Source of the DNA: a bacterium
GTDB lineage: Bacteria > Cyanobacteriota > Vampirovibrionia > LMEP-6097
NCBI GenBank assembly: GCA_038146805.1
Contig: JAYQSH010000005.1
Location: forward strand, 397,636 to 461,635
Reading direction: 5' to 3'
DNA length: 64,000 bases
Position numbers and translations under genes: made by a program. The notes beneath the pieces are model-generated. The model ran no database searches. It was not told the origin of the DNA and was given only the letters and a program-made list of their open reading frames with translations. Shown here one piece after another: positions 1 to 48,698 of the stretch (its first letter is position 1; each line of letters starts with the position of its first letter).

Positions 1-167
1 TTTTTGACAGTTTTTTGCTTATGAAAATTTTCACTTCTTTGTCGAGCACGTTCTAATAATTCTGATAAACGACTATTTTTTGACATCGCAGAACCAGCAG
101 CAAAAGCTAGATTGCTATTAAACAAAAAAACTAAAACAAAGGTCGGTATCAAAAAATTTTTTCGCAT
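1..167 (-). CDS. hypothetical exported protein, N-terminal part only (gene continues past left edge)
   Basis: Reverse-strand ATG at 165-167. N-terminus MRKNFLIPTFVLVFLFNSNLAFAAG looks like a signal peptide. Frame is open to position 1. Too short for the ORF track. Confidence 0.35.
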   Translation of the reverse strand, partial: MRKNFLIPTFVLVFLFNSNLAFAAGSAMSKNSRLSELLERARQRSENFHKQKTVK

Positions 168-237
168 ATTTCTATAATAAGCTTATTATAGAACTATAAG
201 TGCTGTTGTAAAATTTACACAGAAACTTTTTTGAACA

Positions 238-1020
238 ATGCAAAATATAGAAAATTTATTAAAAGAGCCAGCGCAAATTTTAAATCCCGCGCAAAATAAG
301 TATTTACTCGCGAATAATAATTATCAAGAGGTATCAGAGTATTTAGAAAAACAACAAAATATAATTTTGCCAATCGGCAGTACCGAACAGCATGGTGCAG
401 ATGGACTGCTTGGGGTTGATCATATTACAGCAACCGCGATTGCTTACAGTCTGGCGCAACACAAACAAATCCTTTGTGCTCCACCTTTAAACTACGGTAT
501 GGCTATGCATCATCTTGATTTTAAAGGAACTATGGCTTTAAAACCGATTACTTACATTAATGTAATTAGTGATTTAATTGCATCTTTAAAAGACCATGGC
601 TTTAAAGAGATCATTGTCATCAACGGGCATGGTGGTAATAAAGGACCATTTTTAAATGCTCTTGCACAAAACAAAAATGATTTTGCTGATTTAGATTTTA
701 AGTTTTTTAATTGGTGGGTTATGCCAAAACTAGAAAAAGAAATTATCAAAAAAGAATTTGCTGAAAAAGAAGGCTATCATGCAACGCCAACAGAAATTTC
801 TTTAACCATGTTTGTTTGCCCAGAAATGATGTCAGTACCAAAGTCTTATAAATGCCCACAAAAAGAAGTAGGCTCAGAAAACTGTTCATGGGTGATTCCA
901 AAAAAATTCAAAGAACTTTATCCTGATGGAGTGATGCGAGCTGATTATTCACTAGCGACAAAAGATATAGGAAAAAAAGTTTTAGAATTTGCAGTTCAAG
1001 AAATAGCGGCTCTCATTTAA
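238..1020 (+). CDS. creatininase-family amidohydrolase
   Basis: 260-aa ORF with LPIGSTEQHG and VINGHGGN motifs characteristic of the creatininase fold family. Confidence 0.8.
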   Translation: MQNIENLLKEPAQILNPAQNKYLLANNNYQEVSEYLEKQQNIILPIGSTEQHGADGLLGVDHITATAIAYSLAQHKQILCAPPLNYGMAMHHLDFKGTMALKPITYINVISDLIASLKDHGFKEIIVINGHGGNKGPFLNALAQNKNDFADLDFKFFNWWVMPKLEKEIIKKEFAEKEGYHATPTEISLTMFVCPEMMSVPKSYKCPQKEVGSENCSWVIPKKFKELYPDGVMRADYSLATKDIGKKVLEFAVQEIAALI

Positions 1021-1040
1021 GGGTCTATTTTGCTCAAGTT

Positions 1041-1709
1041 CTAATGTAAACGAGTTGTATCAATCAAAATCTCGTTTGCGATTTTACCTTCTTCGGTAAT
1101 ATCAGAATTAATAATTGGATCTTTTTCTTTATATTTTTGTTGCCACCAAGCAACAAAAGCTTCAACAACTTTTGGATCAAATTGCGAGCCCGAAAATCTA
1201 ATAATTTCTTCAAGTCCTTCTTCAGGACTTCTTGCCGGCATATAGACACGATTTGTTGTCATAGCATCATAAGCATCAGCAACAGAAGTGATTTTGGCAA
1301 TAAAAGGAATCTCTTGATCTTCAGCACCATGAGGGTAACCCTTGCCATCAATTCTTTCATGGTGAAATAAAATTGGCTCCAAACATCTCTTTAAATTTGG
1401 AATTTGTGAAACTATATTAGCTCCAAGCACAACATGTGTTTTCATTAAAGCGTACTCTTCAAAACTCAAAGAAGAGGGCTTAAACAAAACATCATCTTTT
1501 ATACCAATTTTACCGATGTCATGTAATAAAGAACCACCTTCAAGATTGAATTGATCATCTTCAGACAAATCAAACATTAAACCTAATTCTTTTGCTATTT
1601 TAAAAACTCTGTAACTATGACCACTAGTATAAGGATCTTTAATTTCAAGTGCATATATCAGGGCCTTTGCGACATTGTAAAATTCTGAGTGCATCATTGA
1701 ATTGTTCAA
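1041..1709 (-). CDS. HD-GYP domain protein (c-di-GMP phosphodiesterase-type)
   Basis: HD motif (LLHDIGK) and HHERIDGKGYPHG signature. Confidence 0.85.
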   Translation of the reverse strand: MNNSMMHSEFYNVAKALIYALEIKDPYTSGHSYRVFKIAKELGLMFDLSEDDQFNLEGGSLLHDIGKIGIKDDVLFKPSSLSFEEYALMKTHVVLGANIVSQIPNLKRCLEPILFHHERIDGKGYPHGAEDQEIPFIAKITSVADAYDAMTTNRVYMPARSPEEGLEEIIRFSGSQFDPKVVEAFVAWWQQKYKEKDPIINSDITEEGKIANEILIDTTRLH

Positions 1710-1946
1710 ATTTAGGATTCCTTCAGGTTCTAGTTAAAAAAAACTAAAGATTTATACTTATAAAGTATACAATGCAAAAGTTTTTATCCACTATATTATT
1801 GACAAAAAAAAAGATCATTTGTTCCACTAAAAGTGTATTAACAATAAACTAAATTTAATGTTAATACCAATAAAGCATAAAAAGAGTTGAATTATTAAAG
1901 CCATAATTTACAAATAACTTTAATATAATTATGTAAGTCATACGCC

Positions 1947-3746
1947 ATGCAAAATCAACAAAAAAACAGAAAGACTCAAATACTGTTAATAATTCTATGT
2001 TCTTTATTTTCAGTAAACCCCATTTATGCCCTTGATGATTTGCAGACAGAAATTGCACGCTATACCAGCGAAGGTATTAATTACCATAACAATAGAAACT
2101 ATATTTTAGCGATACGCTCTTTTGAAAAAGCACTTTTTTTATCGCCAAACGATAAAGAAATTGCAGAAAACTTGAGCATTGCTCACAATAACTACGGTAA
2201 ATATCTTGCAGAGAGAACTGATGATTTGGGTTCTGCTAGAGAGTTTAGAAACTCTTTGTATTATAACGACAGCAACGAAATTGCTCGCGAAAATTTGCGC
2301 GTTAAACTCAAAGAAAAAAATATTGCTGATGATGATATTTTCAAAAGACTTGTTGAAGGTAAACAAGAAAAACTCAAAGAAAATTTCAAAGCGGCAATTG
2401 CCGAGTTTAGAGAAATCAATAAAATCAAAAAAAATGTTGACGCCTACTTAGAGATTGGAACTTGCTATCACTTACTTTCTTTAAAAACTCCGGGCAATAA
2501 CAGTTATACTGACATGGCTTTAATGGAATTAGAGAAAGCGCATGAGCTTGATAAAAATGATCCAAGACCCTTTATTAAGCTTGGTGACGTTAATGTAGCA
2601 AACGGTAAAATAAATAAAGGAATCGATTATTACGAAGAAGCTATAAAACTTGAGCCTGACAATGTAGATGCACAAAGTTCTTTGATTAATGGTTGGCTTG
2701 CGGCGCTACGTATTGCGCCTCATTTGGCAAATAACCATATTGGACTTGGTACTGCTTATCAACTCAAAGGAGATTTCACACAAGCTCAAAGGGCTTTTAC
2801 TAGAGCATTACAAATTGATCCCAACAATCAACTAGCAATGAATAGCATGAATAATCTAAGACAAGATCAATTAAAAACTCAGGTTAATTTACTGCTCAAA
2901 AGAGCTCTTAAAGCTCAACAAGAAAAAGATTATGGGCGTAGCTTAGATCTTTATATTGAAGCAATGCAAAAAGAACCTTTAAACGCTGATATTCACTACA
3001 ACATAGGAACTGTTTTTCAAGCACAAAATAATTTTTCAAAAGCCAAACAAGCTTACAATAGAAGCTTAGAATTAAATCCTAATTTGGTAGAAGCCAAGCA
3101 AGCACTGACTGCTTTGCAAGCTACACAAAAAGAACAATTCATAGAAGAAGCCTTTAACAAAGCAATTGCTTTGCAAAAAAATGATAATTTTGATGACGCG
3201 ATTGAAATTTATAGCAAAATTGCTAAAGACAAACCACAAGATGAAAATCTTTTTTACAACTTAGCAGTTGCTTACCAAGCAAAAAAACAATATGCAAAAG
3301 CGATTGAAAATTATCAAAGGGCATACGCAATCACCCCAAACTCTATTTATAGTGATGCAATCCAAAGTGTAAAAATTGCTGAAGCCAATGAAATTTTGGA
3401 AGAAGCTATTAGTAATCAAGGTAATGCAGAAAATGATAAAGCCATTGCTAATTACAAAAAAGTTCTAGAGATAGTTCCAAGCAATGCAAATGCTTGGTAT
3501 AACCTTGGCACTGCTTATCAAGCAGTTGGCAAAGACCACGACGCACTTGAGGCTTACAAAAAAGCTTTTGAGATTGATCCAAAAAGCCAAAGTGAAGCAA
3601 TATTTTTTGCGGCTTTGATTTTGGAAGAAGAAAGAAAGCTTATTGAAGCAATCGACCTTTATGATAAATATCTTGATGTAGCACCAAGCGGAGAGTATAT
3701 AGCCGAGGCAAAAGAAAGAAAAGAATATATAAAGAGCTTCTTATAA
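1947..3746 (+). CDS. secreted tetratricopeptide (TPR) repeat protein
   Basis: 599-aa ORF. Hydrophobic signal-like N-terminus (ILLIILCSLFSVNPIYA) followed by many 34-aa TPR-like units (recurrent A..Y...G.AY......A...Y.KA.EIDP pattern). Confidence 0.8.
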   Translation: MQNQQKNRKTQILLIILCSLFSVNPIYALDDLQTEIARYTSEGINYHNNRNYILAIRSFEKALFLSPNDKEIAENLSIAHNNYGKYLAERTDDLGSAREFRNSLYYNDSNEIARENLRVKLKEKNIADDDIFKRLVEGKQEKLKENFKAAIAEFREINKIKKNVDAYLEIGTCYHLLSLKTPGNNSYTDMALMELEKAHELDKNDPRPFIKLGDVNVANGKINKGIDYYEEAIKLEPDNVDAQSSLINGWLAALRIAPHLANNHIGLGTAYQLKGDFTQAQRAFTRALQIDPNNQLAMNSMNNLRQDQLKTQVNLLLKRALKAQQEKDYGRSLDLYIEAMQKEPLNADIHYNIGTVFQAQNNFSKAKQAYNRSLELNPNLVEAKQALTALQATQKEQFIEEAFNKAIALQKNDNFDDAIEIYSKIAKDKPQDENLFYNLAVAYQAKKQYAKAIENYQRAYAITPNSIYSDAIQSVKIAEANEILEEAISNQGNAENDKAIANYKKVLEIVPSNANAWYNLGTAYQAVGKDHDALEAYKKAFEIDPKSQSEAIFFAALILEEERKLIEAIDLYDKYLDVAPSGEYIAEAKERKEYIKSFL

Positions 3747-3849
3747 TTCATTACAATTAGGTCTAGACATTGAAAAAATTTAGCTATTCTTAAAATAGCT
3801 TGGTATCGTATTTGATTGTTATTAACAACGTGCTAATATCTTTTGTGGC

Positions 3850-3925
3850 GGGCCCGTAGCTTAGTTGGTAGAGCGCCTCGTTTGCACCGAGGAGGTCGAG
3901 TGTTCGAATCACTTCGGGTCCACCA
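3850..3925 (+). tRNA. tRNA-Ala (anticodon UGC), CCA encoded
   Basis: Cloverleaf read by eye. Acceptor GGGCCCG/CGGGTCC with G3:U70. Anticodon stem CCTCG/CGAGG, loop TTTGCAC. T-loop TTCGAAT. Terminal ACCA at 3922-3925. Confidence 0.93.
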
Positions 3926-4064
3926 TTTCATAAAAAATTACCAAGCTACCCTAGTGGTAGCTTTTTTTTGGGCATATATAACTTAAATGCAGGCTATTCA
4001 ACAACTTATTGCATGCCTCAACTTTATTACAGAAGATAAAGAACCTGAAACTGTACAAGAGAAA
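3920..4064. repeat. left copy of 145/147-bp direct repeat (DR1) bracketing accessory segment 1
   Basis: Near-identical to 8933-9079; differences are the T-run length and one A/G at 4055 vs 9070. Begins exactly at the CCACCA end of tRNA-Ala. Contains a terminator hairpin and the first 26 codons of the 9002 gene. Confidence 0.9.
3943..3969 (+). terminator. intrinsic terminator after tRNA-Ala
   Basis: 8-bp stem AAGCTACC/GGTAGCTT, 5-nt loop, then T-run. Confidence 0.75.
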
Positions 4065-4103
4065 TTGGAAATTGCCTATGTTTTCTTAATATTTTTTTCT
4101 TGA
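3987..4103 (+). pseudogene. truncated 5' duplicate of the gene at 9002..9406
   Basis: First 26 codons (MQAIQQLIACLNFITEDKEPETVQEK) identical to ORF 9002, then divergence and a stop after 38 codons. Confidence 0.8.
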
Positions 4104-4129
4104 ATTCAAGGTCTCTTATTTTGTATAAT
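4100..4129 (+). promoter_or_regulatory. near-consensus sigma70-type promoter
   Basis: TTGAAT (4100-4105), 18-nt spacer, TATAAT (4124-4129). ATG at 4139 lies only 9 nt downstream and no Shine-Dalgarno is visible. Confidence 0.5.
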
Positions 4130-4138
4130 GTAAGTATT

Positions 4139-4954
4139 ATGGAAGTTCCACCAAGTTCATCAAGGAGTATAACTATCCCAACAAGTCGCTATCAAATGTT
4201 AAAAGAAGCAGCTAAGCAGTTTTATAGAACAAAAGGCAGAGAAGAAGCTCATGACACAGAGAGAAGCCGTAGAGACGCTCAGACCTCACTAGAGATGAAT
4301 GTCAGCGATACTACAGAACAATCTTTAGGATTTTTGCTGAGAAATGTTAACCTAATTGCTGATGAATTGAACAGAGATTCAAATGGAGGTGTCAGGAATG
4401 ATAGACTTAACACGACTTTGCAGAAAACACTTACTGGAGTCGTGCAAGAAGAAGTTCTAAGAATGAGGGACAATTTGCAGCGTCAAGTTTATAAAGCTTT
4501 GGCCAGTGAACAATCTGTAGATGCTAGGGGAGAGGTTAATAAACAAATTCTTGAAAAACATAGAAGTGGAGCGCAAATTCTTGAACTTAATGCACCAATG
4601 AGTTCTCTTGATATAGAATTACAAAACGGTTATATTTTATCAAAAACCGACAACTTTGATAGACCAGTCTCGATATTTAGAAATCTTAAACTTGGCAATA
4701 ACGAGGCTTCTGTGGATTTTGATCTTTTAAGAGGAAGTGTAAAAGTTAATATAGATACAAGCGCTCTTGGTAATACAACAATAAAAGCATCAAATGTAGA
4801 TAATCTAGCAACTTACGAAATTGTGCATAATCCTGATGGAGATGGGGCTTTTTCAGTTGAAGCAAGTGAACATGAAAGTTTATTTGATCCAGCTAAAAGT
4901 TTCTTGGCAGATACGATGGAGATGGTTGAATTAGATTTACTAAAAGGTCACTAG
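4139..4954 (+). CDS. hypothetical protein (island cargo)
   Basis: Long ORF with no recognised motif. I prefer ATG 4139 over the ORF-track TTG 4100, which is the -35 box. May be the N-terminal part of a gene continued in ORF 5053..5541 after a frameshift. Confidence 0.5.
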   Translation: MEVPPSSSRSITIPTSRYQMLKEAAKQFYRTKGREEAHDTERSRRDAQTSLEMNVSDTTEQSLGFLLRNVNLIADELNRDSNGGVRNDRLNTTLQKTLTGVVQEEVLRMRDNLQRQVYKALASEQSVDARGEVNKQILEKHRSGAQILELNAPMSSLDIELQNGYILSKTDNFDRPVSIFRNLKLGNNEASVDFDLLRGSVKVNIDTSALGNTTIKASNVDNLATYEIVHNPDGDGAFSVEASEHESLFDPAKSFLADTMEMVELDLLKGH

Positions 4955-5052
4955 GAGCTTCAAGCCTTGAAGCAGGACAAGGCAAAGCTATAAGACAGTT
5001 TATTGCCCATGTCAAAGCAGCTCTAATCGATGATTCAACTGGGCAAATTGAT

Positions 5053-5541
5053 GTGAGCAAAGCGTCGGAACTAGCAAATGATCGTCGTTTTGTTGCTGTT
5101 GCAGAAACATTAGCTTTACATGCTTCTAAAGAAGGTGAAACAGATGGTAATAATCATAGTTTAGTTATAAATGATCTTAAGTATAACAATGGAGAACCTA
5201 TGGGTAGCCTAACAATTACTTCTAAAACAGCAATACGTGCAATTGCAGCAATAGGTGATAGTGTTCCGAACAAAGTTACGATTGAGTTTACACCTGCAAG
5301 TGAAGAAACAGAAGCAAGTTTGCATGGCAAAAAAGTAGACCTCGATCTTGAAAAAGATATAAAGTTATCTAAACATGCCACGCATTACGGAATCAATGGC
5401 TCTGGAGACGATTATGTATCAACAGCGCTTCACGAGGCTCCATCTTCTGATAAATTGCAACCTGTTAGTTTCAGAAAACCTGACCCATTCAAAATCAGTG
5501 TTAATTTTGTGACTGGTGAAGTATCGATAGATGGATTCTAG
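5053..5541 (+). CDS. hypothetical protein (possibly C-terminal part of a frameshifted gene, 3' end abutting IS30 element)
   Basis: Frame is open upstream to ~4929 and overlaps the end of ORF 4139..4954. The last codons (DGF-stop) lie at the IS30-like terminus. Confidence 0.45.
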   Translation: MSKASELANDRRFVAVAETLALHASKEGETDGNNHSLVINDLKYNNGEPMGSLTITSKTAIRAIAAIGDSVPNKVTIEFTPASEETEASLHGKKVDLDLEKDIKLSKHATHYGINGSGDDYVSTALHEAPSSDKLQPVSFRKPDPFKISVNFVTGEVSIDGF

Positions 5542-6435
5542 GAGCAAATGCAACTTTGCTTGATTTCTTCCTCAAAGACCTCAAAAGGTGTTTTGTAGCC
5601 TAGTCTTTTCTTGGTCTACTATTGATTAAATCAACGTACTTTTGAAGTTCTTCATTTGTAATTTTACTCAAATCTGCTCCTTTAGGAATAAATTCTCGTA
5701 AAAGTCCAATAGTATTTTTCACGTTCCTCTTTGCCATGGGCTGTAAGGTTTGGCAAAATATACTTTCATATCAAGACTACTTTCTATTTCTTGATGCTTT
5801 GCAAACTCAGTGCCATTGTCATAAGTTATTGAAAGACAAAGTTCGTCAGGTATTTCTTCAAAAAGCTCCTCAGTTGTTTCAAGAATTGATTTGGCCTTTT
5901 TTATTTTCCATTTTGGCTGCAAGAAGCAGTCAGACCTGCGTTCTACGTTAATTAAAATCTTAGGTGATTGTTTTGGGTCTCCAAGCATAGTATCTCCTTC
6001 CCAATGTCCGGGAACGCTCCTCTCATTGATTTCTTGAGGTCTTTCATCAATCGATCTCTTATTAATAATAAATTCTGGGCTGGATCTTTTCCTTCGATAT
6101 TTTTTACCTTTTCTCCTAAGCCTGAGTTTGACTAGGTCACAGCGTTTCTTGTAGAGCCATTGATATATAGTCTCATGACAAATTACTTCACCAGTTTCTT
6201 GTCTCCATCTACCCGCAATTTGATTGGGAGACCAGTGAAGTTCAATACAATCAATGATAAACTTCTCTAAAACACTGTCACTGACTATCCTTAGATGAAT
6301 ATTAGCTTCTCTTTTTCTTTCATAAGCAAGCTGCCAAGCTTTTTCAGCAGTGAAGCTTCCATCAACTGAATTGTTACTAATACACCTACTTACAACTGAT
6401 TTATTTCTACCAATAGTAATTCCAATTTCACTAAT

Positions 6436-7507
6436 ACAGGAGTTACGCGATTGCCTGACTTAGGTGTAACTGCACAGCTTCTCTAACTATTTCCCATTTT
6501 TGTTGATACCAACTTGTACCCTCTTTGAATCTAAAGTATTCCAGCTTGATCAGAGCTAAAAAAGCACAAAATATATGATTCTTTTGCGCTTGAGCTTTTC
6601 GCATATATGACTTTTCAAGTCCACAGACTTGTTTAAGTCCTCGGTGCATGGTCTCAATAAACCAGCGAGTTTTAGCATGACCAATAAAATTATCCCAGTC
6701 ATCTAAGTCCAAATCGTTAGTTATTAAGTACCTTATCTTCCCGTCTTTGAGAGTCCTCTTGCACACTAATATTGGACCAAAGTCTTTTAGCCAAACTTTC
6801 TTAACTTGTCTTTCTGCTAACTCTAGTTCGTCAACTCTAATCCAAACTCCTTTCACCTCACTAATCTTGCGATTTGATTTTATGTCAGCAACAAAGTTCC
6901 AGCCTTTAGCTTGTATTGCTTTTAAATTTTCCTTTGACACATACCAGCTATCCATCAGTACATAACTTGGCTTGAAACCTCGTTGCTCAGCGATATCTAA
7001 CATATCTCTAAAATGATCATTCTTGGTTTTATCATCACCTTCTTTGTTGTAGATTCGGTAGTCTACTGGTAATGCTATGCCATCTAGGTCAACCCACTGA
7101 GCATTTACGATACCGATACCTTGCTTTACGGCATGATGTTTGCCACTCCATTGCCACTTGGTTAGTTCAATTTTTTTAGCATATGGTTTTTCAAGCAAAG
7201 TATCATCAAATGCTAAGTAACCTTCATTGATATTAATTTTTTCTTCTACCTGAGACCAAAGGTCTTCTGGAGAAAATTCAGAATTATTCAGCCATCTATT
7301 TACTGAATCATGAGCCATTGTTTCATCTCGACTAACTTTTTCCAACTCACTACAAGAATACTGCTTTTGTGAAGCTATTAAAAACTCAACGTACAAATCT
7401 AAGCTACATTTTTGTTGTCTCATGTAGTCTTAGACGTATTTAATTCAAAAAAGTGGCCGTAATACTTATTAAATTACTGACAAATTAGGCAATCGCGTAA
7501 CTCCTGT
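6436..7507 (-). mobile_element. intact insertion sequence nested in the IS30 pseudogene
   Basis: Perfect 21-bp terminal inverted repeats ACAGGAGTTACGCGATTGCCT (6436-6456, reverse complement at 7487-7507). Flanking 3-bp direct repeat AAT (6433-6435 / 7508-7510). Single transposase ORF. Confidence 0.88.
6443..7423 (-). CDS. DDE-type transposase (IS4/IS701-like superfamily; family not resolved)
   Basis: 326-aa ORF filling the IR-bounded element. Acidic-residue context (LAFDDT, YVLMDSWY) resembles DDE transposases. Family assignment comes from memory only. Confidence 0.65.
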   Translation of the reverse strand: MRQQKCSLDLYVEFLIASQKQYSCSELEKVSRDETMAHDSVNRWLNNSEFSPEDLWSQVEEKININEGYLAFDDTLLEKPYAKKIELTKWQWSGKHHAVKQGIGIVNAQWVDLDGIALPVDYRIYNKEGDDKTKNDHFRDMLDIAEQRGFKPSYVLMDSWYVSKENLKAIQAKGWNFVADIKSNRKISEVKGVWIRVDELELAERQVKKVWLKDFGPILVCKRTLKDGKIRYLITNDLDLDDWDNFIGHAKTRWFIETMHRGLKQVCGLEKSYMRKAQAQKNHIFCAFLALIKLEYFRFKEGTSWYQQKWEIVREAVQLHLSQAIA

Positions 7508-7681
7508 AATAGTTAATCCTTGATCTAGCAATGTCTCAATTTTAACCATCTCTTCCCAAGTCAAATGACCCTTACTTTTGTCTGACATCTTTTTCTCCTG
7601 TATTTACTTACAAGGAAGAAAACATAGATTTGTTGCATTTCGGTTTAGAAAGAATCGTTTAAGTTGTAAACAGTTTGATAG

Positions 7682-8389
7682 ATTAGTGGGTCTGCCGAGA
7701 GGCAAAGTCCGAAACTTGGAGAAAGATTTGATTTAGATAATCCAAGGCAGAGTCCATACAAGGCTGCTCGATTTAGAGATGATGGAGGCGTTGTACTGCA
7801 TAAGAGTCAAACCTTCAGGGGACGAGATATAGAGGCACCAATTGGTGCTACTTTTGCTAAAGGACAATACCGTCAACTAAGCAGTAATAGTGAATTGAAT
7901 GATTTGCAAAGACAAACAAAGATTGACTTGAACTTTAAAGGGTTACTGAATGGTGATCCAGATGTTATTGATTTTGTTGATAACACATTAATTGATTCTG
8001 ATGAAGAGAGAGGGGATTTACATTCTAGGTATCTTGCGATGCGTGACTTTGTGTTAGAGGGCGAAAATTTTCCTAGTCGAAGAGCGGACATATTATGGAG
8101 ACAACTTTGCCTAATAAAACAATGTCAATCATCTTTTAAAGATGATGCAGAGTTAACTTTTTATAGAAAAATGTTGACGGCTGATCTTGCTCTTGAATAT
8201 TCAAAAGAGAGAAACGAGAGTAGACATAGTTGGTGGCTTCCACGTGGTTCTATGTATGATGTTATCAAATGGGATGAGAGCTTTAGGGAGGAATTGCAGC
8301 ACGAGTTTTTAGATGAGGCGCATCCTTTTCACTTTAATGCTGAAGAGAGGGATTTGGTAAGATCCCAAGTTTTTACTAACAGGCTTTAA
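7682..8389 (+). CDS. hypothetical protein, apparently 5'-truncated next to the IS30 end
   Basis: Frame open from 7682, just after stops at 7676/7679, with no nearby ATG. The ORF track starts at TTG 7895. No recognised domain. Confidence 0.4.
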   Translation: MSGSAERQSPKLGERFDLDNPRQSPYKAARFRDDGGVVLHKSQTFRGRDIEAPIGATFAKGQYRQLSSNSELNDLQRQTKIDLNFKGLLNGDPDVIDFVDNTLIDSDEERGDLHSRYLAMRDFVLEGENFPSRRADILWRQLCLIKQCQSSFKDDAELTFYRKMLTADLALEYSKERNESRHSWWLPRGSMYDVIKWDESFREELQHEFLDEAHPFHFNAEERDLVRSQVFTNRL

Positions 8390-8421
8390 TTTTTTTAAAT
8401 TCTTCCAAGTTTATGGTTTTT

Positions 8422-8568
8422 ATTTCAATGAGTAAGAAAGTGATTTCTGGTTGGTAGAAGACTATTTCTGTTAAGTAGAATTCAACTTCTAGCTTGCAGA
8501 TAGCTATTTCTTGAGGTAAGAAATTTATTTCTTCTAATGATATGCCCATTTCTTCAAAGTAGATAGGC
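8422..8568 (+). repeat. seven phased 21-bp direct repeats (iteron-like array)
   Basis: Units start at 8422, 8443, 8464, 8485, 8506, 8527 and 8548. Each begins A(T/C)TTC(T/A) and has a (G/T)NAGA-like core about 11 nt later. Confidence 0.8.
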
Positions 8569-8595
8569 TTAGACCCAATTAGGAAGCCAAAATCT

Positions 8596-8938
8596 CAAGT
8601 AGAGGCTGTCGCCTCGTCGCTGCCGCTCCTCGTTGACACCCTACTGTTTTTGTCCGCGAACCAAAGAAGCAAGAGCCAAACCTAGTGCGAGGTCACAACC
8701 GCTAAGTCTAGGCTCTGCGCGAGTCGCCGGTAACTACGCTCCTGAAGGCTTATCTGATGCTAGTCTAGAATGGTGGGAGACTTTGGCTACGGCTTGGACT
8801 GAGGTGGGCGGAGCGAAGCGGAGCCTACTCAAATATGTTCTTCTAAAGTGTTGGACGAGCTTGCGAGAACAACACTTCGGTGAATTTCAGCGCGGCGCCC
8901 CCACCTCGGGTTCGGACAGTTCCGTAAATCCCCCACCA
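8596..8938 (+). ncRNA. candidate structured non-coding RNA of unassigned family
   Basis: About 56% G+C by hand count, with AT-rich flanks. No credible ORF. At least five long-range complementary segment pairs, two of them crossing. Followed by an intrinsic terminator. 5' end uncertain (possibly ~8545). Confidence 0.55.
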
Positions 8939-9079
8939 TTTCATAAAAAATTACCAAGCTACCCTAGTGGTAGCTTTTTTTTTTGGGCATATATAACTTA
9001 AATGCAGGCTATTCAACAACTTATTGCATGCCTCAACTTTATTACAGAAGATAAAGAACCTGAAACTGTGCAAGAGAAA
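8933..9079. repeat. right copy of DR1
   Basis: See 3920-4064. Begins at the CCACCA that closes the GC-rich segment. Confidence 0.9.
8956..8984 (+). terminator. intrinsic terminator (duplicate of 3943-3969)
   Basis: Same AAGCTACC/GGTAGCTT hairpin followed by a T10 run. Confidence 0.75.
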
Positions 9080-9406
9080 GTTGACAATGATCCCTATGCA
9101 ACTGTTTTATCTATTGGAGCAAATGATCTTCGTGATAACAAAAAAGCTAGAGAATTTAACCAAGCTATTAAAGAAATTCATCAAGATCCTAATTTAGTAA
9201 CAAAAAAACAATTAGAGCAAATTACAAGCTTTACTAAAAAGCTATTAGAATTAAAACAAAAAGCACTCGACATGGCTCAAGAGTGCGAGGCTCCTTGGGT
9301 TCGAGAAGAACTTGATTGGATAAAAGAGAGTTATTTGGCTCTAGCTCAAGGCTATCAAAAGATTATTGAGGAATTGGAAAAACTAGTGAAATTAAAAACA
9401 AACTAA
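9002..9406 (+). CDS. hypothetical coiled-coil protein
   Basis: 134-aa ORF with no recognised motif. Its first 26 codons are duplicated at 3987. Confidence 0.55.
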   Translation: MQAIQQLIACLNFITEDKEPETVQEKVDNDPYATVLSIGANDLRDNKKAREFNQAIKEIHQDPNLVTKKQLEQITSFTKKLLELKQKALDMAQECEAPWVREELDWIKESYLALAQGYQKIIEELEKLVKLKTN

Positions 9407-9414
9407 AAATTTAA

Positions 9415-10143
9415 TTAATCAAGTTTTTCTATAACTTTTTCAAAGAATTCTAAAGGATAAGCACCGCCAATTTGTACTCCATTTAAAACAAAATTTGGAG
9501 TACCGCTGACCCCAGCTTGTCTAGCTGCTTTTAAATCTTCTGCTAATTGTGCTTCTACTTCAGTACTTTGCATATCTTCTAAAAATTTCTTTTTGTCGAG
9601 CTTTAGGTCAAGCGCAATTTTTTCATAAAGCTCTTGCCCTAAATCTCTTTGATTAGCAAAGAGCTCTTTTGAATACTCAAAGAACTTGCCTTGTGCGTGT
9701 GCAGCAAGTGCTGCTTTTGCTGCTGCTTTTGCATTTTTATGAAAACCTAAAGGGTAATTTTTTTGTACTATATATAAATCTTTGCCAAGCTTTTCTTTTA
9801 AAGACTGGACTGTATCATCGCCTCGTCTGCAATACGGGCACTCAAAATCTGTAAAAATCACTAGTTGGTATTTTGCATCTTTATTACCATGACCCGGAGA
9901 GTTGCCATGATCTACCTCAACTTTATTTGCAAACATTTTTGTGAATCTTTCTTCTTCAGCTTTTTTTTGTTGAGCTTCTTTTTGTCTTGCTAAAGTTTTT
10001 TCAATGACTTCAGGATTTTTCATGATTATTTCAAGCACTTTTTGCTCTAAAACACTATCACCAATATCATCTAAACTCTCTGCTAATGCAAAATTTGCAC
10101 ATAAAACACAAAGTAAAACTATAGACACAACTTTTTTGATCAT
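9415..10143 (-). CDS. DsbA-like thiol:disulfide oxidoreductase (periplasmic)
   Basis: Thioredoxin-fold CPYC motif (FECPYCRR). Signal peptide MIKKVVSIVLLCVLCANFALA from the ATG at 10143; the ORF-track start 10170 is probably too far upstream. Confidence 0.75.
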   Translation of the reverse strand: MIKKVVSIVLLCVLCANFALAESLDDIGDSVLEQKVLEIIMKNPEVIEKTLARQKEAQQKKAEEERFTKMFANKVEVDHGNSPGHGNKDAKYQLVIFTDFECPYCRRGDDTVQSLKEKLGKDLYIVQKNYPLGFHKNAKAAAKAALAAHAQGKFFEYSKELFANQRDLGQELYEKIALDLKLDKKKFLEDMQSTEVEAQLAEDLKAARQAGVSGTPNFVLNGVQIGGAYPLEFFEKVIEKLD

Positions 10144-10240
10144 AAATAACAATATAGCATTTAAAAGCAAAATTTGAAGAAGGTGCTTAAAAACTCAAGT
10201 TTTCTTGACGCTTACTCAAAAAAATAGCTAAAATTATGGC

Positions 10241-11038
10241 GTGCCAATCAAAGATAACTGGTTTTATGAATCTCTCAAAGAAAGCTCTAGTCTAACTTTA
10301 AAAGTTGACGAGCTTTTATATCAAGAACAAAGCGAGTATCAAGAAGTTTTAGTTTTTTACAATAAAGACTATGGCAATGTGCTTGTTTTAGATGATGCTT
10401 TAATGCTTTCAGACTTAGATGAACATATGTACCACAAAGCAATTACACATTATGGGGTGAGTAATGCAACACAAAACAAAAAACTCAATGTCTTAGTTAT
10501 TGGTGCTGGTGATGGAGGAGTCGTAAGAGATCTATTGAGTAAACATCAAGAACAAATCAATCAAGTAACAATGGTAGAAATTGATCAAGCAGTAATAGAT
10601 GTTTCAAAAAAATTCTTTCCTAAAATTTCTTCTCACTTAAATGATGCAAGACTCGATCTTAAAGTTGAAGACGCATTACAATACATTGACAAAGCGGCTG
10701 ATGCAAGTTTTGATTTGGTGATTTGTGATTCAACAGACCCAGTTGGCTTTGCGGCTGGTTTAATCGAAGAAGATTTTTACAAAAAAATTCAACGAGTTTT
10801 AACAAAAGAAGGAGTTTTTATTGCACAAAGCGGTTCAATTTTTTTAATGCCTGAAGAGCTAGAAACAGCCCAAAAAAATCTCAAAAAAGTTTTTGCTGAT
10901 GTGCATACGTTTTTTGCTCCAATGATGGTATATCCGGGTGTCATTTGGTCTTACACAGCGGCAGGTGCTAAAATCCAGAATAAAGAAAATTTAGATTTAA
11001 AGGAATTTATCAAAGAAAAACAAAGTGTCAATGCCTGA
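10241..11038 (+). CDS. speE: spermidine synthase (polyamine aminopropyltransferase)
   Basis: VLVIGAGDGGVVRD and ICDSTDPVG motifs. GTG start. Confidence 0.85.
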   Translation: MPIKDNWFYESLKESSSLTLKVDELLYQEQSEYQEVLVFYNKDYGNVLVLDDALMLSDLDEHMYHKAITHYGVSNATQNKKLNVLVIGAGDGGVVRDLLSKHQEQINQVTMVEIDQAVIDVSKKFFPKISSHLNDARLDLKVEDALQYIDKAADASFDLVICDSTDPVGFAAGLIEEDFYKKIQRVLTKEGVFIAQSGSIFLMPEELETAQKNLKKVFADVHTFFAPMMVYPGVIWSYTAAGAKIQNKENLDLKEFIKEKQSVNA

Positions 11039-12014
11039 AGTATCAATTATCGTTCCTAGTTATAATAGAGCCGAGTTTCTTGAAGCAACGCTTGCAAGTA
11101 TTCAAAATCAAAGCTTTAAAGATTTTGAAGTAATCTTTGTCGACGATGGTAGTACAGACAACACTGAGGAAATTTTAAGAAAATTTTGTGAGCAAGATCC
11201 AAGATTTAAATATTTCAAACAAGAAAATTCCGAAAGAGCCGTTGCACGTTCTTATGGGCTCAGTTTGGCAAATTCTGATTTATTGTGCTTAGTTGATTCA
11301 GATGATATTTGGTATCCCAACAAACTTGAACAACAATTAAAAGTCATGCGCGAAGATCCAGAAATTGTTTTAAGTTATGCTTCGGTTAATCGCATTGACA
11401 TGCAAGGTAAAGCTATCAGATCTAAGCCACGTCAACATCGCGGTTTTTCTGGTTATGTGTTTTTTGATCTATTGATGCGCAATTTTATACCTTCGGTCAC
11501 TCCAATGTTTCGCAAAAAAGCTTTTGAAGCTGTTGGCAAACAAAATACAGAATTTATTCCTTATGAAGATTGGGATTTTTGGCTTAGGCTTTCAAGGCAA
11601 GGAAAGTTTTTTCATATTAAAGAAGCTTTGGGTGACTATCGCTTACACCCCGGTCAATCAGTACAAAACGTCAAAGCACAACATATCGAAAAAGTGACAA
11701 ATTTTGTTTTAGAGAACAATACTAATTTAGAAAAAATAGACCTAGAAAATTATTTACAACAAATTGGGCTTAAAAAAGATGATAAAGATTTTTCTCAAAT
11801 TGTTGACGAAGCTTATAGCCTTGCAAATTTGAGGTTTGCCTATTGGTATTTAATTGCTAACGAAGCACAAATATCTCAAGCAAAATTATTAAAAGCACTC
11901 AACTTATCTAAAAAAAGACTTTTAGATTATCGTTGGTACGGGCTTTGGCTAGCTAAAACCTGCAAACCAATATTTGGTGATGTGATAACAAAACTCTTGG
12001 GAAGTTTCCACTAA
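11025..12014 (+). CDS. family 2 glycosyltransferase
   Basis: VSIIVPSYNRAEFL...VIFVDDGSTD GT-A signature. Overlaps the speE stop. Confidence 0.8.
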   Translation: MSMPEVSIIVPSYNRAEFLEATLASIQNQSFKDFEVIFVDDGSTDNTEEILRKFCEQDPRFKYFKQENSERAVARSYGLSLANSDLLCLVDSDDIWYPNKLEQQLKVMREDPEIVLSYASVNRIDMQGKAIRSKPRQHRGFSGYVFFDLLMRNFIPSVTPMFRKKAFEAVGKQNTEFIPYEDWDFWLRLSRQGKFFHIKEALGDYRLHPGQSVQNVKAQHIEKVTNFVLENNTNLEKIDLENYLQQIGLKKDDKDFSQIVDEAYSLANLRFAYWYLIANEAQISQAKLLKALNLSKKRLLDYRWYGLWLAKTCKPIFGDVITKLLGSFH

Positions 12015-20937: not shown

Positions 20938-20985
20938 AACTTAGCATTTGGCTTAAACTTATCTTTGAAATTAGTACACTAAAGG

Positions 20986-21084
20986 GACGGTGTTTGATTC
21001 TTTTGTTAGGCGTGTCTAACCAAACCCTACTTATGCCCAAATCTAAAGACTCGAGATGCTTATTACGGGTTTGGAAGAACGCCC
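20986..21084 (+). repeat. MITE-like element, copy 1 (core 21009-21084 plus 23-bp 5' extension)
   Basis: GACGGTGTTTGATTCTTTTGTTA + GGCGTGTCTAACCAAACCC...GGGTTTGGAAGAACGCC. The core has imperfect terminal inverted repeats and a central CTCGAG. Confidence 0.85.
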
Positions 21085-21122
21085 CTAAAGACGCCACCTC
21101 CATGTGCTTGTATAATATTTTT

Positions 21123-30191: not shown

Positions 30192-30287
30192 TCAACCATT
30201 TTAACACTGCGAGCTGTGTCATTTTTATCTCACACTTAAGTAAAATCACTAAGTCTTTTGAGGAATCTTCAAGCTAAAGATAAAAAT

Positions 30288-30361
30288 GGGACAAAAATGA
30301 CACGGTCCGAAGTGTCTTAAAAATAGGACAAAAATAACACGGTCCGAAGTGTCTTATTAGA
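30288..30361 (-). repeat. two tandem 37-bp terminator-like hairpin units (minus orientation)
   Basis: GGGACAAAAATGACACGGTCCGAAGTGTCTTAAAAAT / AGGACAAAAATAACACGGTCCGAAGTGTCTTATTAGA, the reverse complement of the unit at 48699-48883. The second unit overlaps the stop of the ATPase gene. Confidence 0.85.
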
Positions 30362-37123: not shown

Positions 37124-37160
37124 GAGACAAAATGAACACGGTCCGAAGTGTCTTAGCTAA
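37124..37160 (-). repeat. single 37-bp terminator-like hairpin unit
   Basis: GAGACAAAATGAACACGGTCCGAAGTGTCTTAGCTAA. Lies downstream of the minus-strand ORF 37328..37987. Confidence 0.8.
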
Positions 37161-37261
37161 GCGACGGTGTTTGATTCTTTTGTTAGGCGTGTCTAACCAA
37201 ACCCTACTTATGCCCAAATCTAAAGACTCGAGATACTTATTACGGGTTTGGAAGCACGCCC
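37157..37261 (+). repeat. MITE-like element, copy 3 (full, with 5' extension)
   Basis: CTAAGCGACGGTGTTTGATTCTTTTGTTAGGCGTGTCTAACC...GGAAGCACGCCC, near-identical to 49151-49255. Confidence 0.88.
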
Positions 37262-37327
37262 TTTAATCAGGCTTGAATCAAAAGACTGCGTCAATTTTTT
37301 AGTAGATCCTTAAAAAAGCAAACCGTA

Positions 37328-37987
37328 TTAACAAGCTTGCCAAGTTTTTTTCGGCCCGATATTAGGACCAAGCTGAATATTTGATTCTTCAGCAGATTCT
37401 AGTAAATCTTTTAAACGACGAAAATCAGGACTTTGAGCACTGCTTAGATGATAATTACCTATACTTTGCCAAGGGCTTAAACTTGGTTCATCGTGAGTAG
37501 CAAAAGAATTTTCAAAACTTAACTCTCTATCTAGAAAAAATCGAGCAACATCAAGTTCAGCAGGATTTAAGTAATGCAAAGCATTTCTATTATTTCGATC
37601 TGTACAATGCAGATCGATTCCTTTTTTCTCTAAACTTTTTAGCATTTTGAGCTTTAAATTTTGGCTAATTTGACTTTTACGTAAGAGTTCTAGAATTAAA
37701 GGACGCTCAGAATGAGAATTATTACGATAAGAAAATAGATATTTAAATTCTCTTTGTTTTTGCGCAGATGCTTGATCCCAGATTGCTTCAAAGCGCCCAA
37801 TCAATGGACTAAATTCTTCATCTCGACTAGAAGTCAAAAATGCTTGCATAAAATCATCAAAGCTTTGCTCGGCTTCAGGACTAATTTGAACCTTTCTAGG
37901 ATTGATAATATCGTTCGTCAAGTGTTCAATTTCAGCTTGATTTAAACCACACATTTTTAGAACTTTTTTAAACATTGTTGAAAACAA
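37328..37987 (-). CDS. hypothetical protein (possible single ankyrin-like repeat)
   Basis: 219-aa ORF. The segment DRNNRNALHYLNPAELDVARFFL weakly resembles an ANK repeat. Confidence 0.45.
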   Translation of the reverse strand: MFSTMFKKVLKMCGLNQAEIEHLTNDIINPRKVQISPEAEQSFDDFMQAFLTSSRDEEFSPLIGRFEAIWDQASAQKQREFKYLFSYRNNSHSERPLILELLRKSQISQNLKLKMLKSLEKKGIDLHCTDRNNRNALHYLNPAELDVARFFLDRELSFENSFATHDEPSLSPWQSIGNYHLSSAQSPDFRRLKDLLESAEESNIQLGPNIGPKKTWQAC

Positions 37988-39702: not shown

Positions 39703-39860
39703 AACAAAAGTCTTTCAAGATAACAATAAGGCAATACAGGATATTGCTAAACTAATTCTTATGATTATTAGATCTTTTGTTTTAATCTTTTTATTTTTTT
39801 TACAAAGCAGTGCATACGCTGTTGAAAAAAGAGAAATTGATAGCATTTTTAAAGCTAAAT
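39703..39860. repeat. left copy of 158-bp direct repeat (DR2) bracketing accessory segment 2
   Basis: 157/158 identical to 42544-42701. Comprises the upstream region and first 33 codons of the peroxidase gene. Confidence 0.92.
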
Positions 39861-39895
39861 CTGTTGCAACATCATTTCAGAAACTGTATTTCTAA
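39761..39895 (+). pseudogene. truncated 5' duplicate of the cytochrome c peroxidase gene
   Basis: MIIRSFVLIFLFFLQSSAYAVEKREIDSIFKAK is identical to the start of ORF 42602, then diverges to a stop after 44 codons. Confidence 0.85.
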
Positions 39896-41003
39896 AATGA
39901 ATACTTGCTTTTAAAAGAGTATCCAAAGTTATTTGGTCTTTAAATTGATTAAGAACATCAGTTTGATCAGCAGGATTTAATTTTTCAAATAACTGAGAAG
40001 ACAGTAAATCACTTAGACCCTGATTTTGTTTTACATTCGAGTTAAGCAAATCTTTTAAGAGAGTCAATTTATACTGATCCGGCAAATTTTGATAATCTTC
40101 TTGTTCAAAGAGAAATTGAGCAATTTCAGAAATAGGTGTCCCGCTGTTCCGCTTTTTGCTAAACTGTTGTTTAAGAGAAGAAAGCTTTTCATTTGGTTGT
40201 CTTTCCAATGTGATACCAGGATAGTTCCTTTCAAGCACAGTTCTTATTTGACGTCTTTCTTCAATAGAAAAATTCAAATGAGGAACTGTTGAAACAAAAA
40301 ATTCTACTCTTCGCTGTAATTGTTCGGGAGAAAGTTTTTCACTAGATCCTTTTTTAAGCGTAGCCATTAGGGCTTTAAAAAATGTTTTAGTGTTTGAGAT
40401 TTTTCTTGGCACATTCATAGGTTCAGGTATTTCTTCGTCCCTGATACCATGTATTTTGCACCATTCATCACATAATTTTTGTATTTTCTGCTCCCATCCC
40501 GATTGCCTTGCAAGTTTAAGTTGTTCCTCAATTTCTCTCACTCTTCTTAAACGAGCATTCTTTTGAGCAACTTGAGCATTATGGGCTACAGCTTGATCAA
40601 TCCTTTGTTTATTATCCTTTTGTTTTTGAGTAGTTACAGCATCAGAAACAACTGACAAAGAGCGCCCAGTTTCTCTTTTAAAATCATCTTCTTCCATTCT
40701 AGAGAGAGTTCTTAAAACTTTCGGATTAGCTGGATCCCATTTTTTAGCTTGCATATGCTTTAATATTGCTTCTATTGCTCGCGATGCTTTCAATCTTATA
40801 GCCATATTTAGTGCATGAAATAAATAATCTTTCTTTAATTGATGCTCATTTAAGAAAGTTGAAATAGAATCGGCTTCGATTGTTGAATTTGGATTAGAAT
40901 CACCAGCAACAAGTTGCTTTAGTTGTGAAGCCGGATCTCCTAAAAGTTCAGTGAAGGGTCTTCTAAGAAATGTTTCAGGAGGTATTATTGAAGTGCTACT
41001 CAT
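39855..41003 (-). CDS. hypothetical protein (island cargo)
   Basis: 382-aa ORF with no recognised domain. Its stop codon lies at the inner edge of DR2-left. Confidence 0.5.
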   Translation of the reverse strand: MSSTSIIPPETFLRRPFTELLGDPASQLKQLVAGDSNPNSTIEADSISTFLNEHQLKKDYLFHALNMAIRLKASRAIEAILKHMQAKKWDPANPKVLRTLSRMEEDDFKRETGRSLSVVSDAVTTQKQKDNKQRIDQAVAHNAQVAQKNARLRRVREIEEQLKLARQSGWEQKIQKLCDEWCKIHGIRDEEIPEPMNVPRKISNTKTFFKALMATLKKGSSEKLSPEQLQRRVEFFVSTVPHLNFSIEERRQIRTVLERNYPGITLERQPNEKLSSLKQQFSKKRNSGTPISEIAQFLFEQEDYQNLPDQYKLTLLKDLLNSNVKQNQGLSDLLSSQLFEKLNPADQTDVLNQFKDQITLDTLLKASIHFRNTVSEMMLQQI

Positions 41004-41084
41004 ACTAGATAAGAATAGCAGGCTGTTATCTATTTTTCAAATTCTTTTGGTAACTACTCAGGTCTAAAAAGCTAGTTTGAGCAC

Positions 41085-41205
41085 GTTTATTAAAGATTTA
41101 CAAGCATAAAGTATTGAAATCCCTTGTTTTTTGGCAGTATAAATAGTAGAAAGTATTGTGGCGTGACGTTTAGCGGTGTTTGGATTTCTAAAACAGCCTG
41201 AGATT
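41085..41205 (-). pseudogene. possible transposase C-terminal remnant (IS66-like tail)
   Basis: Reverse frame reads SGCFRNPNTAKRHATILSTIYTAKKQGISILYACKSLI. This is reminiscent of the RKNWLF....A..lYSLIETAK.NG tail of IS66-family transposases. Short, and matched from memory only. Confidence 0.3.
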
Positions 41206-41647
41206 TTCTAAAGCAAAACAAGAAAATGGCAAAAATTTAAATGGAATTCTAGATGGAGTCTTTAGTTTTGGTATAAAGAGAAATTGATTAGCATTCCTCC
41301 AGAAACCAACACAACTACTAAGTTTATGAACTTTAAGATTAGTTAAAGATAGAACTAGAGAAGGACTTCAAAAAATTTCAACAATAGGTTCTATTTAATA
41401 TACTAATCTAACAAATAGTACTTTCGCTTTATATTTCAAAGCGCAGGCTAAATTGTCAGATGGTGCAAAAGAAGATATATGCAGACTAATGAATCATTAT
41501 CGCTATGATCATTCCATATTTTTAGAAGAGCTTTTCTTGAAAAATTAGGGGTTAACATGGTGCTACGAAAGTATTTTCTAAAAAATTAAGCTAGAGTCTG
41601 GAAATTACCTATCAAATTGAATAAAACAAAGACCTTTTATCTTTAAT

Positions 41648-42454
41648 ATGACAAGAGTTGGTGAATCTAAATTCTCTCAAAAAGTTACTGTCGTTAGAAA
41701 GTCAGTAGACCCTGAACAGTGGTCTCATGTTGATATTAACTCTAAGCCTGGTAACTTTTTAATTAGAGCAGTAAATAGCCCTGAAGATTTTGAAAGAGAA
41801 TTTAATTCGGATACAGTCCCAAGACCTAAATCAAGAAATGGTATATGTGGTGGAGTGTCAACAATTCATGTTAATGGTAACAATCAAGAACCGTCTAATG
41901 ATGAAGCTTTATGCAATGCTTTAAGAGTATATGCAAGAAATGATAAAAAAATTGGTTACCTTCTTGATCGAGAAAGTCTTAAGAGTTCAGGAGTTAGAGT
42001 GGTGAATAACCCACACCGTTTTTATAGAGCCAAAGGTTTATATTCGAAGTCTACTAACGAATACTTTGATGAAGCAATCGTTTTAAATTCAATTCCAAAA
42101 GGTCATATTAAAGCACTCACAATTAGCGATGAGCATCTTGAAAATGAAGAAACAAAAATTGCTATTGGAAAATTAGCTAAAAAGTTTAATCTGCCTATCG
42201 TTTACATTGGTGCTCAGTATGATGTCTTAGAAGGTAAGCCAAAATTTGGAGATATTATTAAGATCTATGATTGTGGAGCAGTTAAATGTATCTCAAACCC
42301 TAATAAAGCAAAAAATACTAGACAAAATCATGAAAAGCAATCTGAGCTACTGATAAAGTATCAACCATTATTAAATACTAGAAGAATGCCACAAACAATA
42401 ATACCCAATAGTTCTTTGACTATGATTAAATTAAGAACTCAAATTAGTCCGTAA
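41648..42454 (+). CDS. hypothetical protein (island cargo)
   Basis: 268-aa ORF with no recognised domain. Confidence 0.5.
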   Translation: MTRVGESKFSQKVTVVRKSVDPEQWSHVDINSKPGNFLIRAVNSPEDFEREFNSDTVPRPKSRNGICGGVSTIHVNGNNQEPSNDEALCNALRVYARNDKKIGYLLDRESLKSSGVRVVNNPHRFYRAKGLYSKSTNEYFDEAIVLNSIPKGHIKALTISDEHLENEETKIAIGKLAKKFNLPIVYIGAQYDVLEGKPKFGDIIKIYDCGAVKCISNPNKAKNTRQNHEKQSELLIKYQPLLNTRRMPQTIIPNSSLTMIKLRTQISP

Positions 42455-42543
42455 GACTACAAAACAATATCTGCTTCCTTGTAAGTAAATATAGTGGGAA
42501 TAAAAGTGGTAAACAAAAGATTGAAAAATTTTTGGATCTAAGC

Positions 42544-48689: not shown

Positions 48690-48698
48690 TACTCAGTA

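Follow-up and report, generated by a model that had tools for sequence, protein, structure and literature searches.

Two strain-variable insertions, each bracketed by a 145–159-bp duplication of host DNA, in a member of the Vampirovibrionia

Accessory DNA near tRNA genes is usually credited to integrases. Here we describe a 4.9-kb segment that adjoins a tRNA-Ala gene in an uncultured member of the Vampirovibrionia (Cyanobacteriota; lineage LMEP-6097), within a 64,000-nucleotide (nt) stretch of contig JAYQSH010000005.1 (assembly GCA_038146805.1, positions 397,636 to 461,635 of the forward strand; hereafter the window, in which all coordinates are given). The segment lies between two near-identical copies of a 145-bp sequence that reaches from the end of the tRNA gene into the following protein-coding gene, here called gene 9002 after its start position. 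Another insertion built in the same way lies 35 kb away in the window. The starting point was a first-pass annotation made from the sequence alone, whose claims are considered below where the results bear on them.

The duplicated target beside tRNA-Ala

The features at the left and right ends of the segment are as follows.

3850..3925, plus strand: tRNA-Ala(TGC) gene (ARAGORN; Rfam tRNA, 68.5 bits)
3920..4064, plus strand: left repeat copy, 145 bp, with T8 and with A at 4055; same variants in contigs L017, L018 and L007
3987..4103, plus strand: stub of 38 codons, the first 26 codons of gene 9002 joined to 12 cargo-encoded codons
8933..9079, plus strand: right repeat copy, 147 bp, with T10 and with G at 9070; same variants in contigs L001–L003
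9002..9406, plus strand: intact target gene (gene 9002), 134 amino acids (aa), without a known domain and evolving fast within the species

Alignment of positions 3900–4110 with 8913–9125 showed that the two copies correspond from CCACCA (3920/8933) to GAGAAA (4064/9079) and differ solely in the length of one T-run (T8 or T10) and in an A/G substitution at 4055/9070, a match that cannot be of chance origin in a 64-kb window of 33.5% GC. The left copy opens with the last 6 nt of tRNA-Ala (CCACCA: acceptor positions 71–72, the discriminator and CCA), and both copies include a terminator-like hairpin (3943–3963 and 8956–8976; AAGCTACC-CTAGT-GGTAGCTT, followed by the T-run) and the ATG and 26 codons of gene 9002, such that the repeat spans −67 to +78 relative to the start codon. 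The alignment and the open reading frames (ORFs) thus bear out the first-pass description of 145/147-bp direct repeats with a gene stub on the left and the intact gene on the right; the promoter that it had placed within the repeat is not seen, a simple scan having found no sigma-70 promoter in either copy. Beyond the repeat, similarity past the right edge is marginal and patchy (P ~0.06 when anchored at the edge, 0.5 unanchored), and none was found past the left edge.

Both junctions recur in independent short-read assemblies. The left junction (tetratricopeptide repeat (TPR) gene, tRNA-Ala, left copy with T8 and A, cargo) is present in two Joint Genome Institute (JGI) contigs (L017 and L018) that match window positions 1–5746 at 99.6%, and a Logan contig (L007) starts 30 nt to the left of the A variant and continues into the cargo. 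The right junction (cargo, GC-rich tract, right copy with T10 and G, gene 9002) is present in three JGI contigs (L001–L003) that match positions 7383–11650 at 99.9–100%. An assembly artefact, the possibility for which a check of the reads had been advised, is ruled out by three independent assemblies, which recover the junctions with the same copy-specific variants.

Empty sites and carrier strains

Conspecific metagenome contigs were reached via the protein product of gene 9002. Eight of them (L004, L005, L006, L019, L020, L021, L022 and L023) carry the empty site that the first-pass annotation had suggested looking for in relatives: the TPR gene, tRNA-Ala, a single 145-bp copy with the terminator, and gene 9002, with nothing between. 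Because their left flanks are 98.5–99.1% identical to the window across 1.8–4 kb, their right flanks 99.3% (L004) and 94–95% (L006) identical, and spermidine synthase 98–99% identical in both L004 and L006, most and probably all of the empty-site contigs belong to the same species as the window. By this comparison, the 4.9-kb segment is a true insertion relative to close relatives and represents strain-variable foreign DNA.

The repeat itself carries information on its source. Among the eight empty sites, the 145 bp differs at 2–4 positions between strains, and both copies in the carriers have one haplotype that is absent from all eight empty-site strains; the exceptions to this common carrier haplotype are the A of the left copy and the T10 of the right copy, which were seen nowhere else. 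Judged from this shared haplotype, the duplicated DNA is derived from the lineage's own chromosome. Each of the two derived variants lies in the cargo-proximal half of its own copy (chance expectation, 1/4).

The distribution of the insertion among strains is less simple. Carriers diverge by 0.35–0.4% in their flanks (~0.4% in a 1.5-kb flank) yet share the insertion, its nested insertion sequences (IS) and the two copy-specific variants, and the inference of a recent event, drawn earlier from the near-identity of the copies, consequently holds only loosely. In this 1.5-kb flank the window is nearer to two empty-site strains (0.20–0.26%, from few single-nucleotide polymorphisms) than to the other carriers, and the failure of insertion presence to track flank similarity would fit gain and loss by recombination. 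At greater distances, a scan of the genome collection for gene 9002 returned no matches; the closest that the reference collection offers are metagenome-assembled genomes of Candidatus Caenarcanales and Melainabacteria (spermidine synthase identity, 53–78%), whose tRNA-Ala to speE interval holds core genes without repeats and is uninformative on the insertion.

Gene 9002 and the DNA after it are variable in their own right. Its protein is 79–84% identical (aa) in L004 and L006, compared with 98–99% for spermidine synthase, such that the gene evolves much faster than its neighbours; in several strains it is frameshifted into two ORFs of ~75 aa, and in L019 and L020 it is broken at ~9207. A strain-specific segment of 2.4–2.6 kb lies between gene 9002 and a DsbA-like gene in L004 (5416–7800 of that contig) and L021 (5425–8023) and contains a 70-aa ORF together with the gene for a protein of 536 or 706 aa that matches YadA_head faintly; no direct repeats flank this segment, which the window, L006, L022 and L023 all lack.

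A second insertion of the same design

The suggestion to search for further repeat pairs that join an upstream region to the 5′ end of a gene was productive within the same window, where a scan of its whole length recovered 39703–39860 and 42544–42701 (99% identical, 2841 bp apart).

39703..39861, plus strand: left copy of the second instance, 159 bp, −59 to +100 of the peroxidase ATG; yields a stub at 39761..
39862..42543: cargo of the second instance, 2683 bp, absent from contigs L024 and L025
42544..42702, plus strand: right copy of the second instance, starting 59 nt before the cytochrome c peroxidase gene (42602–43903, intact) and including its first 33 codons

Two contigs from other strains (L024 and L025) have the empty site, with a divergent 431-aa gene, 82 nt and the peroxidase gene in succession. 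The repeat segment is therefore single-copy at the empty sites of both insertions, and each insertion has a truncated and an intact copy of the target gene (3987–4103 and 9002–9406; 39761.. and 42602–43903). The second cargo contains a 382-aa ORF (minus strand) and a 268-aa ORF (plus strand), both without homologous domains, as well as ~90 nt of an IS30-family 5′ end (42451–42543) that is cut off at the junction. No tRNA gene, CCACCA or junction microhomology was found at this instance.

The two cargos are unrelated in sequence and have no common termini. The events are nevertheless similar in outline, with duplications of 145 and 159 bp that start 67 and 59 nt upstream of an ATG and with net cargos of ~2.74 and ~2.68 kb. 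Relative to the strain represented by L021 and L024, both non-IS insertions specific to the window strain are of the duplication design, whereas the 2.4-kb segment of that other strain has no repeats. No further long-repeat pairs were found in the fetched loci, but short-read contigs break at such repeats. The occurrence of a second insertion of this kind suggests that the lineage repeatedly takes up DNA without a recognisable integrase or transposase.

Cargo of the first insertion

Between the two 145-bp copies lie the following features, of which the IS nest accounts for the difference between the 4.9-kb segment and a net cargo of ~2.74 kb.

4100..4129, plus strand: promoter-like site TTGAAT-18-TATAAT ahead of the first cargo gene, identified by pattern match alone
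4121..5541, plus strand: 473-aa cargo gene, ORFan, intact in P0007 and P0010
about 5529..7656, minus strand: decayed IS30-family element, bounds set by homology to the intact copy at 38022–39072
6436..7506, minus strand: IS701-family element inside the IS30 copy (NCBIfam score, 368 bits; cut-off, 250)
7685..8389, plus strand: 234-aa cargo ORF, ORFan; in the window the GTG start of L001 falls out of frame (G3/G4 difference)
8434..8568: iteron-like array, six units with an exact 21-bp period at 8443–8568, consensus AYTTCT-N5-GTAGA
8581..8932: GC-rich tract, 350 bp, 55% GC (peak 58%) compared with 33.5% for the window

The cargo coding sequences have no detectable relatives. Neither the 234-aa ORF nor the second half of the 473-aa gene had a homologue among 5.8 billion proteins, and the first 271 aa of the 473-aa gene matched only itself among 1.84 billion representatives; the cargo proteins had no domain match in Pfam, NCBIfam or PHROGs, no homologues in viral contigs and no paralogues inside the window, and the cargo DNA matched nothing in a plasmid collection. 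AlphaFold models of the two proteins, made with no alignment, were unusable (mean predicted local distance difference test score, 36–39). Thus, the ORFan status proposed in the first-pass annotation stands, but its two reading frames are one 473-aa gene that is broken in the window assembly by an A4/A5 homopolymer difference near 4943; likewise, the ORF that it had considered 5′-truncated is indeed shortened in the window, but is a 234-aa ORF in L001, with the G3/G4 difference removing its GTG start here. These homopolymer differences from the short-read assemblies (~4943 and ~7687) may be long-read consensus errors or real mutations.

The IS nest, with one element inside a decayed IS30, was also described correctly, and we assign the inner element to the IS701 family (transposase, 6443–7423; inverted repeats, 6436–6456 and 7486–7506). 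The final 3 codons and the stop of the 473-aa gene lie inside the IS30 terminus, and in L001 the frame of the 234-aa ORF reads through the opposite IS30 end without a stop. Depending on exactly where the IS ends, the two ORFs may thus be parts of a single ~715-aa gene that the IS30 copy has split. On this organization, the cargo is originally a ~2.7-kb piece that later gained an IS30-family copy, itself then hit by an IS701-family copy.

The 21-bp repeat array is genuine, its six units standing in exact phase with an autocorrelation of 0.53 at lag 21 (background ~0.27), although Tandem Repeats Finder did not call it; such direct units of 17–22 bp in helical phase are typical of iterons. The minus strand of this region (8376–8549) also gives a 57-aa open frame in which a 7-residue motif (xEIxFxx) repeats and which JGI called as a gene, and the array, which we take to be a DNA-level repeat, may alternatively be a coding repeat.

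The first-pass statement that no integrase is present was confirmed, and no att-type core was found. Among the cargo ORFs of either insertion, no integrase, resolvase or other recombinase was detected (Pfam, NCBIfam and PHROGs), the sole mobility genes being the IS30-family and IS701-family DDE transposases with their own ends, and carrier contigs with intact cargo genes likewise have no integrase. There is no terminal inverted repeat between 4065.. and ..8932; a search for IS30 ends at the cargo termini gave nothing significant except the truncated remnant at 42451–42543 of the second cargo, and one for decayed internal copies of the repeats in either cargo gave only 13–14-nt low-complexity matches.

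Other repeats in the window

An intact IS30-family element (38022–39072; 323-aa transposase; target duplication ATT or TATT) splits the 431-aa gene near the second insertion into ORFs at 37328–37987 and 39037–39678, and this gene is uninterrupted in L024 and L025. A family of ~107-nt sequences with internal inverted repeats, resembling miniature inverted-repeat transposable elements, occurs at 20977–21088, 37157–37263 and 49151–49257, with a partial copy at 47117–47168 that adjoins the 3′ side of tRNA-Leu (47177–47261, minus strand); the copy at ~37191–37261 is missing from L024, and sequence of this family continues where gene 9002 breaks off in L019 and L020. Finally, five to six tandem copies of a 37-nt unit, each with a small hairpin (GAACACTTCGGACCGTGTTC), lie at 48662–48922, and similar units terminate contigs L004, L019 and L020 and recur near 30283–30359.

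How the insertions may have arisen

To account for both insertions, we tentatively favour, with confidence a little short of even, single-crossover (Campbell-type) recombination of small circular DNAs bearing ~150 bp of host sequence, as the first-pass annotation had proposed for the first of them. The donor would have been a small DNA circle, probably a cryptic plasmid or one produced by excision, that carried ~150 bp of the lineage's chromosome, and one crossover between the circle and the chromosomal copy by host homologous recombination would have produced an insertion-duplication. Because the shared segment would have run from the tRNA end through codon 26, the product would have the stub to the left of the cargo and the complete gene to its right. 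The same two repeats would permit the reverse loss, as well as spread from strain to strain by ordinary recombination, with no need for an integrase or transposase. The corresponding circle would be expected to contain a junction leading from the GC-rich tract through one repeat to the left end of the cargo (TTGGAAATTGCC). In Escherichia coli, single crossovers of circular plasmids left 109–950-bp duplications of the homologous locus (PMC3240628).

Several observations agree with this mechanism. The layout, with repeats that are the duplicated target, is exactly that expected of such an event, although the circular intermediate, its acquisition of host DNA and the cargo's plasmid character are inferred. 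The shared haplotype of both copies would fit a resident circle that had copied the DNA of its own host, and the positions of the A and T10 variants would be explained if the copy on the circle had diverged slightly and the crossover had fallen between its positions ~50 and 136. There are faint hints of a replicon in the array beside the 234-aa ORF and, in the second cargo, in the 382-aa ORF, which matches DnaB_2 below threshold (E = 0.025).

Other observations weigh against a circular donor. No circular or free form was seen, as every assembled contig with cargo genes shows the integrated form; no Rep protein of a known family was found in either cargo (Pfam, NCBIfam and PHROG), and no DnaA box lies within 3 kb of the array. 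In the second instance the repeat adjoins a truncated IS30 end, which resembles an illegitimate junction, and its sole variant is in the cargo-distal part of the left copy. Moreover, the prior capture of ~150 bp of chromosome, a rare event, would be needed twice and with unrelated cargos, and the model leaves the likeness of the two events in duplication length, position and cargo size unexplained.

The main rival is that the target was instead duplicated in place, by a one-step illegitimate insertion that requires no homology on the incoming DNA and of which the repeats would be a very long target-site duplication, a possibility that we regard as somewhat unlikely. Linear DNA could have been captured at a break with strand cuts ~150 nt apart, followed by gap fill-in; replication could have switched template, leaving at codon 26, passing through foreign DNA and returning at the tRNA end; or foreign DNA could have bridged two sister chromosomes, and transformation-driven bridging of sister chromatids that creates duplications has been documented (PMC3784515). 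Such routes are consistent with two copies of one host haplotype not found in the eight sampled empty-site strains, with two independent events alike in duplication length and start-codon position, with arbitrary cargo ends (a truncated IS30 end in one, the GC-rich tract in the other) and with the absence of a circular form, as well as with the 6-nt CCACCA overlap at one junction of the first event and the marginal similarity past its right edge (P ~0.06). However, that similarity is not significant, microhomology is absent from both junctions of the second event, and with two events only, similar lengths could reflect chance and selection for intact neighbouring genes. We also know of no bacterial enzyme or pathway that leaves ~150-bp duplications. 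The more specific proposal that this melainabacterial lineage inserts foreign DNA by an undescribed mechanism, duplicating in place ~150 bp of target from ~60 nt upstream of a gene to ~80–100 nt inside it, is unlikely in our estimation; a possible cause would be a pair of strand cuts set by a protein–DNA or R-loop structure at gene starts.

Site-specific integration, with an integrase since lost or encoded elsewhere and an attachment region that supplied a replacement 5′ end of the target gene, appears improbable, although islands at the 5′ end of dusA and at the 3′ ends of tRNA genes are known to regenerate their targets in this manner. The first insertion does adjoin a tRNA gene, its stub and regenerated gene match the arrangement of dusA-type islands (PMC4482086), and IS activity in the cargo could have deleted genes. 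Yet neither cargo has an integrase, nor do the carriers whose cargo genes are intact; the repeat includes 6 nt of the tRNA and no displaced tRNA fragment; the two events have different ends and no common core; and the repeats are 145–159 bp of near-identical host haplotype rather than a short core and a diverged replacement end.

The GC-rich tract and the CCACCA motif that follows it had been interpreted as the end of a GC-rich RNA, paired with the CCACCA end of the tRNA, and the tract is indeed the sole non-coding GC island of the window besides the tRNA genes. Its interpretation as a known or structured RNA was rejected. Rfam yielded nothing at gathering thresholds or at E ≤ 1, and ARAGORN found no transfer-messenger RNA (tmRNA) at its default or 80% threshold and only implausible permuted calls at 60%; position 70 of the supposed acceptor is C instead of U, with no 5′ GGGGGAU partner for the stem; and the tract as a whole (z = −0.27 and −0.59 for the plus and minus strands, respectively), like every 120-nt sub-window on either strand (no z below −1.1), folded no better than dinucleotide-shuffled sequence. 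A coding remnant is unsupported, as the tract has no codon periodicity, a single open frame without a Pfam match, and no BLAST match to phages or E. coli genomes, nor to plasmids when searched as part of 7600–8940. That the CCA ends were functional, with a CCA-ended tRNA- or tmRNA-like RNA joined by, for example, reverse transcriptase template switching, is therefore highly improbable despite CCACCA at the left edge of both repeats, since, besides these results, the DNA past CCACCA is genomic trailer and not mature RNA, no reverse transcriptase is present and the second event has no CCA end; an RNA-end-dependent process is essentially excluded. The weight placed on two CCACCA ends is thus unsupported, and so is any requirement for a tRNA: the second insertion lacks both a tRNA gene and CCACCA and has zero microhomology at its junctions, so that the shared 6 nt is best read as incidental or as microhomology.

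Significance

Together, these are two independent insertions, verified in the population, that have no recombinase or element ends and that each lie in a 145–159-bp duplication of unique host DNA. If host recombination alone suffices, as in the single-crossover explanation that we favour, they would represent natural, recombinase-free and reversible gene gain, and a route by which ORFan genes enter and leave the small genomes of an uncultured sister group of the Cyanobacteria. If, alternatively, the likeness in duplication length, position and cargo size extends genome-wide, it would indicate an unknown insertion mechanism, and one acting in place would add gene cassettes of ~2.7 kb while leaving both neighbouring genes intact. 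The recurrence raises the interest of these loci above that of a single accident, and a new mechanism of ~150-bp duplication has a real but minority chance of being the explanation.

Comparison with known systems

The closest parallel is Campbell insertion-duplication, as known from suicide plasmids and from single crossovers after conjugation in E. coli (PMC3240628), in which the duplicated target likewise brackets the inserted DNA, a homologous segment containing a gene's 5′ end leaves a truncated copy upstream and a complete one downstream, and ~110–950 bp of homology is enough with no element-encoded recombinase required. The present cases differ in that the events are natural, the homology is a unique chromosomal ~150 bp and not an IS or a cloned fragment, and the circular form was not observed.

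Islands placed in tRNA and tmRNA genes by tyrosine integrases (Islander, PMC4383910) share with the first insertion the adjacent tRNA gene, the direct repeats and the variability among strains, the segment abutting the tRNA gene and being absent from relatives. Here, however, an integrase is lacking, the second insertion lies away from any tRNA gene, and the repeat of the first consists of the last 6 nt of the tRNA and 139 nt of downstream DNA, with no displaced tRNA 3′ fragment. In the dusA islands (PMC4482086), a remnant gene end on one side and a complete gene on the other recall the stubs and intact genes described here. Those islands have dedicated integrases, a 21-bp semi-conserved core and a diverged replacement end, whereas the repeats here are 145–159 bp of the same haplotype, with no integrase. 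Phage 21 and e14 in icd are further cases of intragenic integration in which the element supplies the replacement gene end.

Transposons, too, leave the target duplicated on both sides of the insert. IS and transposon target duplications are about 2–15 bp long, compared with the 145–159 bp found here, where, moreover, terminal inverted repeats and common ends are absent and no transposase acts at the cargo termini. In homology-facilitated illegitimate recombination and merodiploidy (PMC5361080, PMC3784515), recombination-proficient populations likewise acquire foreign DNA that lacks two-sided homology, and the bridging of sister chromosomes can yield duplications; but the classical homology-facilitated events delete recipient DNA beside the anchor and do not duplicate the anchor, and the documented merodiploid duplications are 100–900 kb long and lie between IS repeats. 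In comparison with these systems, the insertions described here are best classed as a natural, recombinase-free variant of insertion-duplication, for which the position beside a tRNA gene and the CCACCA motif are incidental.

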